This document shows, in pieces, positions 14,074 to 45,738 of a stretch of 64,000 nt of DNA. Source of the stretch: Escherichia phage AV111; the sequence record OR352941.1; one strand, written 5' to 3'. Every line of letters starts with the position of its first letter. The stretch's first letter is position 1. The notes beneath the pieces are model-generated. The model was not told the DNA's origin. It worked only from the letters and a program-made list of their open reading frames with translations, and ran no database searches. The position numbers and the translations under genes were made by a program.

Positions 14074-14430
14074 TTAACCCCGGAGTTTATTGAGCTCTTC
14101 ATAATCAATCCAGGATTCTAGCCCTGACGGCAGGTCACATTCAATGTTCCACAGAAGCTCTTCAATGGCTTGCAGGCGATTATATTCTTCAACGGTAATG
14201 GTAACCATTGGTGCAACCGGTTCTGCCTTTTTAACCATCATGTCGTTCATCAGGACGTAAAGGTCATCACGAACGACAGTGTCGTTCCATCCCCATGATT
14301 TGGCTTCGTAAGCTAATGATGAAGGGAGCACATTTAAAACTTCAATAATAGTTGGAGCATCAGGACCAAGTTCATTGGCACAAACTTCGTATACATCTTG
14401 GAAATCTTTAAGATTTAATGAATATGTCAT
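14074..14430 (-). CDS. hypothetical acidic protein
   Basis: 118 aa ORF. Confidence 0.5.
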   Translation of the reverse strand: MTYSLNLKDFQDVYEVCANELGPDAPTIIEVLNVLPSSLAYEAKSWGWNDTVVRDDLYVLMNDMMVKKAEPVAPMVTITVEEYNRLQAIEELLWNIECDLPSGLESWIDYEELNKLRG

Positions 14431-29060: not shown

Positions 29061-29390
29061 TTATACTCGAGGCTTTTGAGCTTGTTTGGTATTGGATTCC
29101 CATGCAGCTTTGGTAATTTTGTTAGCGGCATAACCAAAGGCATTAGATAGAACACCTTTAGAGTTGAATACATCCAATCCAATAAGTACACCGGCTGCGT
29201 TAAATTTAGGAGCAAAGTATGCATTAGTTTTAGAAAGAGCTTTTTTCAATTCAGGGTCTTGAACCAAACCATCAAAAACGCCTTTACTATTTACTTTATA
29301 TGTTACTTTGGGATTTTTACCTTCTTCGATAGCAGCTTTCTGTTCCGCAGATAATGTAACTTCAGTGATAAACTCTTGATACGTTTTCAT
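29061..29390 (-). CDS. internal-protein-like (capsid-targeting leader)
   Basis: 109 aa; N-terminal MKTYQEFITE leader. Confidence 0.6.
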   Translation of the reverse strand: MKTYQEFITEVTLSAEQKAAIEEGKNPKVTYKVNSKGVFDGLVQDPELKKALSKTNAYFAPKFNAAGVLIGLDVFNSKGVLSNAFGYAANKITKAAWESNTKQAQKPRV

Positions 29391-30192: not shown

Positions 30193-30474
30193 CTATTTTT
30201 CTGAAGCGCCTGAAATATATTTTTCAAGACGTTGTTTCATTAGCGAGCCGTTCTTAGCGATTTCTTCCGGTTTATCGCACATACGTAACAAGGCTTCAAG
30301 CTTAGCGATATCGCTGGTACGTTCAAATTTGCGAGTATCTATCTTACTAGCAAGTTCAGAAATACGTGCTAATAGACTTTCGGCTTCAACCAAAGCTGCA
30401 CCTAGCTTAGTTGCAAATGTGTCAGTAGCTTCGTTAAGAATAGATTCTGATAAAAATTCACTATATGTTTTCAT
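30193..30474 (-). CDS. internal-protein-like (capsid-targeting leader)
   Basis: Start at [10 protein letters not shown] (ATG 30472-30474), ATGA overlap with lysozyme stop. Confidence 0.55.
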
Positions 30475-38228: not shown

Positions 38229-38255
38229 AAAAAGCCCCAACCTTTCGGAAGGGGC
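38229..38255 (-). terminator. intrinsic terminator
   Basis: Minus GCCCC-UUCCGAAAGG-UUGGGGC then UUUUU; near-identical to 38763-38790. Confidence 0.55.
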
Positions 38256-38261
38256 ATTCTA

Positions 38262-38525
38262 TTATTTAATTTGTTTAGCAGACCAGATACGGTCTTTAAT
38301 AAGTTTTTGGATATCTTCAACATACTCAAGGCTATGAGCGTGAGGATTATCTTTGAAGCTATGTGCTCGTGCCAGTTTCTGGCCTTCTGTTTTGATTACT
38401 AAAAGCTCTTTAAGAATTGCTTCATACTTAGAAATAATTCCTTTGGCGATATTTTTTTTCTTGAGCTGCTTTAGGGTCCGCTTTTGGCGCAGGTGCTTTA
38501 CCTGTAGCTTTCTGGAACAATTCAC
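38262..38525 (-). CDS. hypothetical basic protein; may be the shifted-frame continuation of 38428-38727
   Basis: 87 aa ORF overlapping the IP-like ORF by 98 nt across a T8 run at 38452-38459. Confidence 0.3.
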   Translation of the reverse strand: MNCSRKLQVKHLRQKRTLKQLKKKNIAKGIISKYEAILKELLVIKTEGQKLARAHSFKDNPHAHSLEYVEDIQKLIKDRIWSAKQIK

Positions 38526-38727
38526 CTGATGCAGCTAGGCTTTTAAAAACTCGGCTAACAGTATTAGCATTAGTAAAACCTTCGGCTTTAAAATCTCTAA
38601 TAAAACGGAAACGTTCTTCATCAGAGGCGTCTTTGTAAGAATATTTACCTGCTTGAATTGCTGCAATCGCAGCGGCTTTTACATCTGAACTAGATTGTTC
38701 AGTCAAAAATTCAGCGTATGATTTCAT
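38428..38727 (-). CDS. internal-protein-like (capsid-targeting leader)
   Basis: 99 aa; N-terminal MKSYAEFLTE; Ala/Lys/Pro-rich C-terminus. Confidence 0.5.
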   Translation of the reverse strand: MKSYAEFLTEQSSSDVKAAAIAAIQAGKYSYKDASDEERFRFIRDFKAEGFTNANTVSRVFKSLAASGELFQKATGKAPAPKADPKAAQEKKYRQRNYF

Positions 38728-38762
38728 GTTGCTTTTCCTAAGTTAATTAACTTATCTATTTA

Positions 38763-38790
38763 TTATTATGCCAAAAAGCCCCGACCTTTC
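38763..38790 (-). terminator. intrinsic terminator downstream of the structured-RNA region
   Basis: Minus AGCCCC-UUCCGAAAGGUC-GGGGCU then UUUUU. Confidence 0.55.
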
Positions 38791-39110
38791 GGAAGGGGCT
38801 AAGCCTTGCGGCAACCTTGTCGGGGTTCCACCTGCTAAGGCAAGTGTTTGTACGAAACGCCGGGATTCGAACCCGGTTATTAAGTAGTTGACGCTACTCA
38901 ATATTTTTAAAAGGCCATATCTCGACCATATCCGAACGTTCCGTCAAAAACGCTACTCGGCTTACGGCAAAGATATTTCCTCGAATCGATAATTCGGTGC
39001 GCCGTTTCTGCTGTGATGTAAGGGGATATTAACGAATCATAAAGATTTATTAAGACCAGTCCTTACTCAGGGAACATCAGTCCGACGACTTACCGGTAGC
39101 GACCCGGCTT
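38791..39110 (-). ncRNA. putative structured stable RNA region with tRNA-like acceptor/T-arm element (38851-38941)
   Basis: No ORF on either strand; perfect T-arm CCGGG-UUCGAAU-CCCGG at 38858-38874 flanked by pairing CGGAACG/CGUUUCG; further hairpins; bounded by tRNA-Arg region upstream and terminator 38763-38790 downstream. Confidence 0.35.
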
Positions 39111-39474: not shown

Positions 39475-39550
39475 TGGTGCCTCTAGAAAGATTTGAACTC
39501 TCACCATTAACCTTAGAATGATTATATGCTATCCATTACACTATAGAGGC
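39475..39550 (-). tRNA. tRNA-Arg (anticodon UCU), CCA encoded
   Basis: Hand-folded 76 nt cloverleaf: acceptor GCCUCUA/UAGAGGC, D-stem GUGU/GCAU, anticodon stem UAAUC/GGUUA with loop AUUCUAA, T-arm GAGAG-UUCAAAU-CUUUC. Confidence 0.75.
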
Positions 39551-40201
39551 AATTAAATTATTTACAATATCTTCTTTATAAACTTCAGCATAATGAAGTT
39601 CATATATTTCCCATCCTAATGATTTTATAATATCATGGCGTTCTTTATAATAAGGGGCCAAAATCTTTTTCTTAGGATTGGAGTAATGTTGGTTTCCATT
39701 AACTTCAATAATAATCTTTTTATCTATTAAAGCAATATCCGTGCAATACGCTCGGTTTTTAACCGGTTGGTATTCTTCAATAAATGAAATTCCATTTTCT
39801 ATTAATTTAGATTTCAAAAATTCACAAGGCACAGATTTAAATTTTGTATTTTTCTTCCAAGGATGTTTATCGGGGTTTTCATTCAACCATTTTTTCCGAG
39901 CATTAGATATTTTTATTCTAGCTTCCTCAGAGTGTTCTCTACCTAATGAAGCGGCTGACAATTTTTGTCTAGTCTCTTCCGAAATTACTACAGGAACACC
40001 AGTCTTTTTAGATACAACATACTGGTTTAAATTACCTGAAGCTATACGTGCTTTATTCATTGCTGCAATGGCTGATTTAGAACTTTCTTTATACAATTCC
40101 AATTTAGGGTTGGATTTACACCATCTAGTGTGGTTAGCCATCCATCCTTTAGGTTTATTAGAAATATCAAATTCCATATTACAATGTTTACAAATGCTCA
40201 T
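39536..40201 (-). CDS. homing-endonuclease-like protein: Zn finger + NUMOD3-like repeats + DUF559/Vsr-like PD-(D/E)XK nuclease domain
   Basis: ATG at 40199-40201 (track start is TTG 40207); CKHC...WC; SEETRQKLSAASLG and SEEARIKISNARK; C-terminal IDKKIIIEVNGNQH...ERHDIIKSLGWEI; sits between tRNA genes. Confidence 0.6.
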   Translation of the reverse strand: MSICKHCNMEFDISNKPKGWMANHTRWCKSNPKLELYKESSKSAIAAMNKARIASGNLNQYVVSKKTGVPVVISEETRQKLSAASLGREHSEEARIKISNARKKWLNENPDKHPWKKNTKFKSVPCEFLKSKLIENGISFIEEYQPVKNRAYCTDIALIDKKIIIEVNGNQHYSNPKKKILAPYYKERHDIIKSLGWEIYELHYAEVYKEDIVNNLIASIV

Positions 40202-40275
40202 TACCAATTATCTCCTATAAAATATAGGAGTATTTATTATTTGGATAGAGCACTTAATTTACTTCGTTTAAATTA

Positions 40276-40347
40276 CTGGCGCACTTTGACTCGAACCAAG
40301 ATAAAGGAGTTAACAGCTCCCCGTAATAACCTTTATACGATGCACCA
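40276..40347 (-). tRNA. candidate tRNA-Asn (anticodon GUU), CCA not encoded
   Basis: Hand-folded 72 nt: acceptor UGGUGCA/UGCGCCA (one GU), anticodon stem GGGAG/CUCCU with loop CUGUUAA, T-loop UUCGAGU; one G-A mismatch in T-stem, 3-bp D-stem. Confidence 0.4.
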
Positions 40348-40353
40348 TTTGTT

Positions 40354-40428
40354 TGGTGACCCTGGCTGGTTTCGATCCAGCTACCTATCAGTTATGAGCT
40401 GACAGCTCTCCCATTGAGCTACAGGGCC
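40354..40428 (-). tRNA. tRNA with CAU anticodon (elongator Met or Ile2), CCA encoded
   Basis: Hand-folded 75 nt: acceptor GGCCCUG/CAGGGUC, D-arm GCUC-AAUGGGA-GAGC, anticodon loop CUCAUAA, T-stem GCUGG/CCAGC. Confidence 0.7.
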
Positions 40429-41318: not shown

Positions 41319-41686
41319 GAATGTTCCACCATTTCAAAGGTATGAGCATCAACAATATGATACCAGTCAAAATTTTCTTCCGCGTTTTTATAAATTTCGC
41401 GAAGAGCCTCAACAGTTTTTCCTGTAGCAACAAGGTCGTCAATACCACCAAGAGGATAACAGTCATAACCAGCAAACAGAAGGAAATTAATAGTTTCTGT
41501 AGGTTCTGGATGCAGTGTACCGTTGTCATCGACTACTTCAAAGAAAGTGTAAGAAGGAGTACAAGTTTTAATCCAAGCCCATGCTTGAGCTGCCGAATCA
41601 AATGGTCTGCGTATTAAACGACAATCAGGGTCTTTAGAAGGATTTGCTTCAAAATCCGCATATACGTGATATTTCATTTTACTCAC
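41315..41686 (-). CDS. hypothetical protein
   Basis: 123 aa ORF, coupled to neighbours. Confidence 0.5.
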   Translation of the reverse strand: MSKMKYHVYADFEANPSKDPDCRLIRRPFDSAAQAWAWIKTCTPSYTFFEVVDDNGTLHPEPTETINFLLFAGYDCYPLGGIDDLVATGKTVEALREIYKNAEENFDWYHIVDAHTFEMVEHS

Positions 41687-41886
41687 CTTTTTGCAATTTT
41701 ATCCATAACGATAGCGATTAAACCGATTAGAAATGCTACTACCAATGAGATAGAATTTTCAGTTGTTGTCAGTAGTCCGCAAATGAATCCTACAAACATC
41801 GAAAAACTAAAAGCCATTGAAGCAATTACTACAGCAACATTACGAATCAGTTCAGCGCGTTTCATTTTATTTCTCCATTTACTCAT
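41683..41886 (-). CDS. small membrane protein
   Basis: 67 aa, two TM segments; early promoter 41903-41932. Confidence 0.5.
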   Translation of the reverse strand: MSKWRNKMKRAELIRNVAVVIASMAFSFSMFVGFICGLLTTTENSISLVVAFLIGLIAIVMDKIAKR

Positions 41887-41935: not shown

Positions 41936-42223
41936 TTACAGAAGAGTTTTTGCAATAATTTTAAGCTGAGCTACAGAAATATGCTTAGCTTTAAACAGTG
42001 CAGTCTCTTCAGCCGGAGAGATAACAATAGTAGCGCCGTCTTTCTTAGCAGACCATCCATCCCCTAAGTAAACAGTACCTTTTACTTCTTCGCCGTCAAC
42101 CAGACTAATCATTGGTTTACCCTCACGTCCTTTATTTGTTTTAATAACTTCGGAAGTAAGGGTTGCTTCGGTCAGAGTAGAAACGTTAGCATCAGGTGAT
42201 ATAAATTCTTTATAGGTTTTCAT
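41936..42223 (-). CDS. ipI: internal protein I (injected anti-restriction protein)
   Basis: 95 aa as in T4 IPI; MKTYKEFISP leader; adjacent to 57B as in T4; early promoter 42258-42287. Confidence 0.7.
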   Translation of the reverse strand: MKTYKEFISPDANVSTLTEATLTSEVIKTNKGREGKPMISLVDGEEVKGTVYLGDGWSAKKDGATIVISPAEETALFKAKHISVAQLKIIAKTLL

Positions 42224-45288: not shown

Positions 45289-45738
45289 TTACCCCTTGTA
45301 TCCGAGTTTCCTAAGTCCGTCTTCGGTTAGAACTCGAAATTTTATATTTCTCTTTTCAGCAACAGCTGAAGCAGCTTTCCATTTGTCACAGTTCACAGAC
45401 CAGGTGTATATTTCATTCATATAACGTTTCTTTGCTGCGGTAGTAAGATTTGCAGGCTTAATAGGTGGCTGAGTTTCTTTCTTTGGTTTTATTTCTACAA
45501 AGAACTCTTGGCCTGATGCATCTTTCATCCATATGTCCATATAGTATCGACGTTTCTTGCCTTCAGCATTACAAAAATATGGAATTACTGCTGTTTCACT
45601 ACCCCATGCAATAATTTCTGGATTTTTATCCAACCATTCGAAAAAGAATTTTTCCCAGTTTGAACGATACGTTATTTTGGTATGGTCTCCACGGTATTTT
45701 TTTAAATTTTTCGGGACCCATTTACCAGAGTAGGCCAT
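45289..45738 (-). CDS. 4: gp4 head completion protein
   Basis: Start at MAYSGKWVP (ATG 45736-45738) with SD AAGGAGG gives 149 aa; late promoter upstream. Confidence 0.8.

Follow-up and report, generated by a model that had tools for sequence, protein, structure and literature searches.

One internal-protein-like gene split by a single extra adenine at a length-variable tract in Escherichia phage AV111

Homopolymer tracts and internal proteins of T-even phages

A-runs in the rII and e genes of T4 are frameshift hot spots of the Streisinger type, hypermutable poly-G tracts with mixed populations occur in Campylobacter phages, and dnaX-type systems give short and long products. According to the main text of Gomez, Barrick and Waters (bioRxiv 2025, PMC12633550), reversible ±1 frameshifts occur at ~3e-4 per read in T2, T4 and T6 homopolymers of at least six bases, and the tracts of agt (A9) and rIIA (A6) act as contingency loci, which was shown functionally. 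An internal-protein-like gene is not mentioned in the part of that main text examined. The T4 internal proteins IPI, IPII and IPIII are capsid-targeted and injected with the DNA, and IPI* inhibits the GmrSD restriction enzyme (PMC3012670). The internal proteins are known to have just their leader in common and to serve as injected anti-restriction factors (PMC3012670).

The locus described here lies in Escherichia phage AV111 (OR352941.1), within a 64,000-nt (64-kb) stretch of DNA that was analysed as a whole and is called the window. Like the T4 internal proteins, the gene product carries a leader of the form MK[ST]Y.EF[IL].E with L/I-x-E (compare MKTYQEFIAE), its body is small and non-conserved, a late-promoter-like motif precedes the gene, and the surroundings are the variable tRNA / e / ip region. 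Unlike IPI, IPII and IPIII, to which it has no sequence or fold similarity past the leader, it stands apart in its body; this difference is weakly defining, because the known internal proteins are mutually unrelated beyond the capsid-targeting sequence (PMC3012670). The resemblance to the T2, T4 and T6 contingency loci, as the main text of PMC12633550 presents them, consists of a poly-A tract of at least six bases in an accessory ORF, ±1 off alleles with presumed DNA polymerase slippage, and a preserved downstream frame, as reversible switching predicts. In contrast to agt and rIIA in that text, the tract is known here from cross-genome polymorphism, and the N-terminal module, which may be functional, is retained in the off allele. 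Single-base gains and losses at A-runs replicated by a T4-family DNA polymerase are also the hallmark of the Streisinger hot spots, which were recovered by laboratory mutant selection, whereas the tract described here shows standing variation in natural isolates. The Campylobacter phage tracts likewise vary in homopolymer length within structural or accessory phage genes, but they consist of G, belong to another host and phage lineage, affect receptor-binding proteins and have a shown phenotype. The arrangement recalls dnaX-type genes in that an A-rich tract lies between two modules and the shifted frame ends a few codons on, giving a truncated product; unlike in those genes, the normal allele is in frame, stimulatory elements are absent and the out-of-frame length is not conserved.

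A single gene interrupted by one adenine

The window comes from a T4-like phage of the Straboviridae, genus Mosigvirus, and nucleotide comparison of the region gave 96-99% identity to many Mosigvirus genomes. The minus-strand interval 38262-38727 is one gene with a +1 A insertion, split by one extra A. Its first reading frame, ORF1 (38428-38727, minus strand; 99 aa), starts at an ATG and comprises the leader, the N-terminal module (N-module), a linker and eight out-of-frame residues, KYRQRNYF, followed by a stop. The downstream ORF (38262-38525, minus strand; 87 aa) has the GTG at 38525 as its sole start candidate. The two ORFs overlap over 38428-38525 (98 nt) in differing frames and meet at a homopolymer at 38452-38459, T8 on the plus strand and A8 in the mRNA, which is the longest homopolymer of the 64-kb window. 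The initial annotation, made from the sequence alone, had reported both ORFs, their 98-nt overlap, the absent ATG and the T8 run, and every one of these was confirmed on the minus strand. Removal of one A from A8 joins the frames into a 154-aa ORF, and the frame change required at A8 is +1 (or -2), not -1. In the intact gene the run is A7 and encodes E90-K91-N92 (GAA AAA AAT). The coding sequence for the C-terminal module (C-module), N92-K154 plus the stop (38262-38453, minus strand), is read in the +1 frame with respect to ORF1 and contains no internal stop; the module is probably untranslated in the A8 allele, because it has no start codon of its own.

The relatives of the phage carry the gene in one piece. 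The 466-nt frameshifted allele aligns with the 465-nt CDSs of a20, JK36 and O157tp3 (O157 typing phage 3), and a single 465-nt CDS with A7 at the same place is present in these three as well as in F31 and phiE142. Against these relatives the window gene shows 1-3 substitutions and a single indel, A8 in place of A7; compared with a20 and F31, the difference is one substitution besides the extra A. An 81-nt query centred on the run had an exact A8 match in none of the 75 INPHARED Mosigvirus records, and the span was 80 nt in all 60 of the matches listed. The repaired protein aligned end to end with phrog_2280 (residues 1-154, E 1e-53). By tblastn it matched 511 phage records, 469 of them with coverage of at least 80%, including many Tequatrovirus genomes whose orthologs have 157 aa and ~74% identity, and full-length clusters of 154-157 aa predominate in a large protein database. 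The search for a single long ORF in related phages, proposed in the initial annotation, was thus answered with A7 and a 465-nt CDS. Its suggested fusion product of about 150 aa is what the orthologs encode as one ORF of 154-157 aa, and they agree with its view that the capsid-targeting-type N-terminus and the C-terminal part are halves of one protein on either side of the run.

That the interval instead holds two separate genes, the downstream ORF using its own start, is extremely improbable. A GTG-initiated ORF of 87 aa does exist, but inspection of the sequence found no Met codon anywhere in its frame and no Shine-Dalgarno sequence at the GTG at 38525. No ortholog has an annotated or conserved separate downstream gene, the intact orthologs all read through the run, and the 11 Tequatrovirus records with A8 (see below) all annotate the truncated upstream CDS of 97 aa and nothing further at the locus.

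The encoded protein and its surroundings

The leader MKSYAEFLTE (38698-38727, minus strand) resembles a capsid-targeting sequence and contains an L-x-E motif (L8-T9-E10) of the type cut by the T4 prohead protease. The pattern MK[ST]Y.EF[IL] is common to four ORFs of the window, this gene included; the other three are at 29061-29390, 30193-30474 and 41936-42223 (minus strand). ORF 41936-42223, which lies 3.2 kb from the gene, is a true IPI (PF11634, E 6e-50), and the remaining two (109 and 93 aa) matched no Pfam family. Judged by these leaders, at least four internal-protein-type genes appear to be encoded in the window. The repaired protein likewise had no Pfam family, and residues 1-43 weakly matched phrog_7857, an 'internal virion protein' (E 0.008). 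Its AlphaFold model (pLDDT 74, pTM 0.41) consists of a helical N-module (residues 13-71), a disordered linker (72-84) rich in Lys, Ala and Pro, and a helical hairpin that forms the C-module (85-151), with the A-run falling just past the linker. Fold searches with this model against BFVD and the PDB returned its own family only, with no fold match in the PDB. Going by sequence resemblance, the protein may enter the head, undergo cleavage by gp21 and be injected together with the DNA.

The two modules may have separate histories. Matches found by tblastn in Klebsiella phages are limited to residues 1-71, i.e., the N-module, and the database protein P0010 (94 aa) carries the last ~30 residues of the C-module behind an unrelated N-terminus (PF26894, Y07C-like). 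Together, the N-module-only matches and P0010 suggest that the N- and C-modules shuffle within the family. A further broken allele, P0006 (Logan, 119 aa), has a frameshift inside the N-module and likewise hints at such shuffling.

The gene follows the tRNA cluster and the rnaD/rnaC-like RNAs and precedes an e.8-like gene and FRD3; in RB68, rnaD and rnaC are annotated immediately upstream of it. This slot, from rnaC to e.8, is presumably not among the three places of ip genes in T4. A T4 late-promoter-like element, AATAAATA (38757-38764, minus strand), starts 37 nt upstream of the ATG and agrees at 7 of 8 positions with TATAAATA, as a motif match only; in Tequatrovirus orthologs the corresponding position, 36-48 nt before the ATG, holds a perfect TATAAATA. 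A Shine-Dalgarno-like AGGA, read from the sequence, lies 9-12 nt upstream of the ATG (38736-38739, minus strand). Terminator-like elements flank the gene on both sides: a G+C hairpin with a T-run after the rnaC-like region (38773-38799, minus strand) and, downstream, its near-repeat GCCCCTTCCGAAAGGTTGGGGC with a T-run (38229-38255, minus strand). Terminators are annotated in G28 at places equivalent to both hairpins. The gene looks like a small, monocistronic, late-promoter-driven unit that would encode a late-expressed internal head protein. The hairpins at 38229-38255 and 38773-38799 are near-identical, both reading GCCCCTTCCGAAAGGT[T/C]GGGGC, then a T-run, and such flanking copies could promote recombination or deletion of the cassette.

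The neighbouring tRNA cluster is highly variable between near-identical Mosigviruses. ARAGORN found three tRNA genes only (Arg, Asn and Met) in 39475-40428, and the same locus holds ten in JK36 and two in a20 and O157tp3. Between tRNA-Asn (40276-40347) and tRNA-Arg (39475-39550) lies ORF 39536-40207 (minus strand, 223 aa), which from its weak NUMOD3, DUF559 and RAP-domain matches looks like a homing endonuclease. A stretch of ~870 bp (39478-40353) is absent from F31, where the tRNA genes are adjacent, and probably arose when a mobile endonuclease gene inserted into the cluster.

Length variation of the tract and its origin

Other phages carry the same insertion. By a query that extends fully only through A8, the A8 tract was found in 11 of the 469 INPHARED records holding the gene, corresponding to 10 phages: T4_ev240, teqhal, EC128, PYps55T, AUBRB02, SF2-1, G28, ph0021, ECO07P3 and PsgM02F. 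In PsgM02F (OR584013.1, labelled a Pseudomonas phage), the gene is identical to that of the E. coli phage ph0021, A8 included, and the locus is otherwise Tequatrovirus; the host may have been misassigned, or the sample may have been contaminated. The tract is A9 in ECO4. It is one base short in SfPhi01 and 235Ecol030PP, both with 100% identity over QEKISL..., and F26 may belong with them. Since low-complexity filtering masked half of the -1-frame tail used as tblastn query, the count of -1 alleles is a lower bound. A DNA query with A6 yields no A6 count, the interrupted runs of RB68 type aligning with a bridged gap. Two protein clusters, P0007 with 6 members and P0009 with 10, likewise stand for alleles one base short, and one metagenome contig has A6. 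Scans of IMG/VR and of metagenomes (8 loci each, a small sample for frequency) gave 13 A7, 1 interrupted and 1 A6 tract. Overall, ~96% of the orthologs have an in-frame A7 and ~3% an out-of-frame length, an elevated ±1 frequency that refers to comparison between genomes. In a large RB68-type clade the run is broken synonymously by GAG, GAGAAAAA. Within Mosigvirus, the identical 99-aa product is encoded, also with A8, in the Logan assemblies SRR32320485 and SRR32320486, two runs from one study and one sample, whose DNA shows 59 differences from the window over 1598 positions, 9 of which fall inside the gene.

The A8 alleles appear to have arisen repeatedly. They are spread over many haplotypes, and their closest relative is frequently A7, which argues for independent events; teqhal (A8) differs from an A7 metagenome allele by 0 substitutions. 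Repair of one base restored an intact downstream frame in 15 of 15 frameshifted alleles, and such undamaged frames indicate that the alleles are recent, reversible or artefactual rather than old pseudogenes.

Whether these lengths are real was assessed at runs of equal length in the same phages. Since no A7 run was found in any essential Tequatrovirus gene in 50 kb of teqhal, agt was chosen as the control; it is the site that, in the main text of PMC12633550, was experimentally shown to switch in T2. In the same Tequatrovirus record population, the A7 run of agt had +1 alleles in 0 of ~420 closely matching records, compared with 13 of ~394 at the tract described here (Fisher p = 7e-5), and at the A7 run of the essential gene 4 no +1 allele occurred in a set of at least 152 records. 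Downstream of gene 43, at teqhal 14104-14110 and the orthologous positions, an intergenic A-run is freely polymorphic in Tequatrovirus (A6, A7 and A8), so true length differences do reach the databases wherever selection permits them; the query for this run matches ~8 places per genome, and the run is apparently part of an element repeated in promoter regions. Additionally, alignment of the window with F31 over 61 kb revealed no further conserved ORF broken by a homopolymer indel. Taken together, the agt, gene 4, intergenic and F31 controls indicate that generic sequencing error is not the explanation of the pattern.

Runs of at least 7 bases are scarce in the window. Only T7 at 195-201, T8 at 38452-38459 and T7 at 45697-45703 were found, against ~30 expected from base composition (a rough i.i.d. 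estimate made without a shuffle), an approximately tenfold depletion; runs of six are common (43 T6 and 13 A6). The T7 at 45697-45703 falls within codons 12-14 of essential gene 4, and its length does not vary among relatives. At 41692 the window has T5 where F31 has T4, near the 3' end of a Y07D-like membrane-protein ORF (41683-41886, minus strand); the difference alters the last few residues and the length (67 versus 61 aa), and the ORF survives.

For the AV111 record itself, a consensus or assembly error, with a phage that is truly A7 and an intact 154-aa gene, has to be considered, and we regard it as unlikely. Consensus errors concentrate at sites such as this tract, the longest single-base run of the 64-kb window, the run is shorter in all 75 INPHARED Mosigvirus records, only one substitution and the extra A separate the gene from a20 and F31, and artefacts would equally leave the downstream frame undamaged. 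Support for A8 in Mosigvirus comes from the window and one other sample (two runs of one study). On the other hand, the 61-kb alignment with F31 is clean elsewhere, the other two 7-base runs of the window are normal, A8 was assembled from two separate read sets of another strain, and the A7 runs of agt and gene 4 lack +1 calls in hundreds of records where this tract has 13. The homopolymer error suggested in the initial annotation therefore fails as a general cause, given the clean A7 runs of agt and gene 4, and for this window is the less likely reading.

Rescue of the long product by recoding is far less probable still. RNA polymerase would have to delete an A, or the ribosome shift +1, at A8, so that a short product and a fused long product are both made. 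A8 is at the lower edge of slippage-capable lengths, the shift would fall just after the inter-module linker so that both products are sensible, and short and long products have precedents of the dnaX type. However, out-of-frame A8 is rare against ~96% in-frame A7, and a large clade carries the GAG-interrupted run. The site needs +1 or -2 and has no in-frame stop, no Shine-Dalgarno-like stimulator and no known +1 signals, and the downstream RNA structure is not stable (z = -0.12). Deletion slippage by E. coli RNA polymerase is undetectable on poly(A) of up to 8 (PMC6260861). The rarity of A8, the GAG clade, the lack of downstream structure and the lack of deletion slippage by RNA polymerase together make such a rescue unlikely. 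A dnaX-like -1 ribosomal frameshift on the intact A_AAA_AAT, which would give the same truncated tail, was also considered and rejected, as stimulators are absent and the heptamer is lost in the GAG clade. The programmed slippage put forward in the initial annotation thus finds no support, given an in-frame A7 as the norm, the interrupted clade, the missing stimulatory signals and the undetectable deletion by E. coli RNA polymerase on such poly(A) runs. The A-tract is an ordinary mutational hot spot rather than a programmed recoding site.

We therefore favour, with a probability of about 0.7, a real +1 A slippage allele at a hypermutable tract in a single internal-protein-like gene. The 154-aa protein of the intact gene would run from its leader through a helical N-module and a disordered linker to a helical C-module. 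The A7 tract would gain one A, most likely by slipped-strand mispairing during replication of the phage DNA. Translation past K91 would then run out of frame and reach a stop 8 codons on, giving the 99-aa product; this product would retain the leader and the N-module and may still be packaged, and the C-module, having no start codon, would presumably not be made. The tract would be a recurrent mutational hot spot and a putative contingency locus, caught in AV111 in an 'off' or truncated state.

A stronger proposal, that selection maintains the poly-A tract as an on/off or long/short switch for an internal protein that is injected, is tentative, and we consider it rather doubtful. Slippage between A7 and A6, A8 or A9 would let T-even-type phage populations continuously produce virions with either the two-module protein or the N-module alone, and might hedge against hosts with defence systems that the C-module blocks or triggers. 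Such a switch would agree with three findings: off alleles at ~3% across haplotypes, a C-module frame that has not decayed, and retention of A7 despite the depletion of long runs. The phase-variable gene raised in the initial annotation holds as a mutational phenomenon, with A6, A8 and A9 recurring on many haplotypes; an adaptive role is hypothetical.

In annotations, the entry for 38262-38727 should be a single frameshifted gene, or else a low-quality or pseudogene call, instead of two hypothetical proteins. The findings at the tract leave the understanding of recoding unchanged. The locus provides a natural case of homopolymer-length polymorphism in an accessory gene of T-even phages, seen across public genomes. 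Polymorphism at this tract and its absence at equal-length runs in constrained genes support the contingency-locus claim, as put forward in the main text of PMC12633550. Since the T4 internal proteins are injected anti-defence effectors, a switchable one would be a tractable lead to a host defence that selects for or against it.
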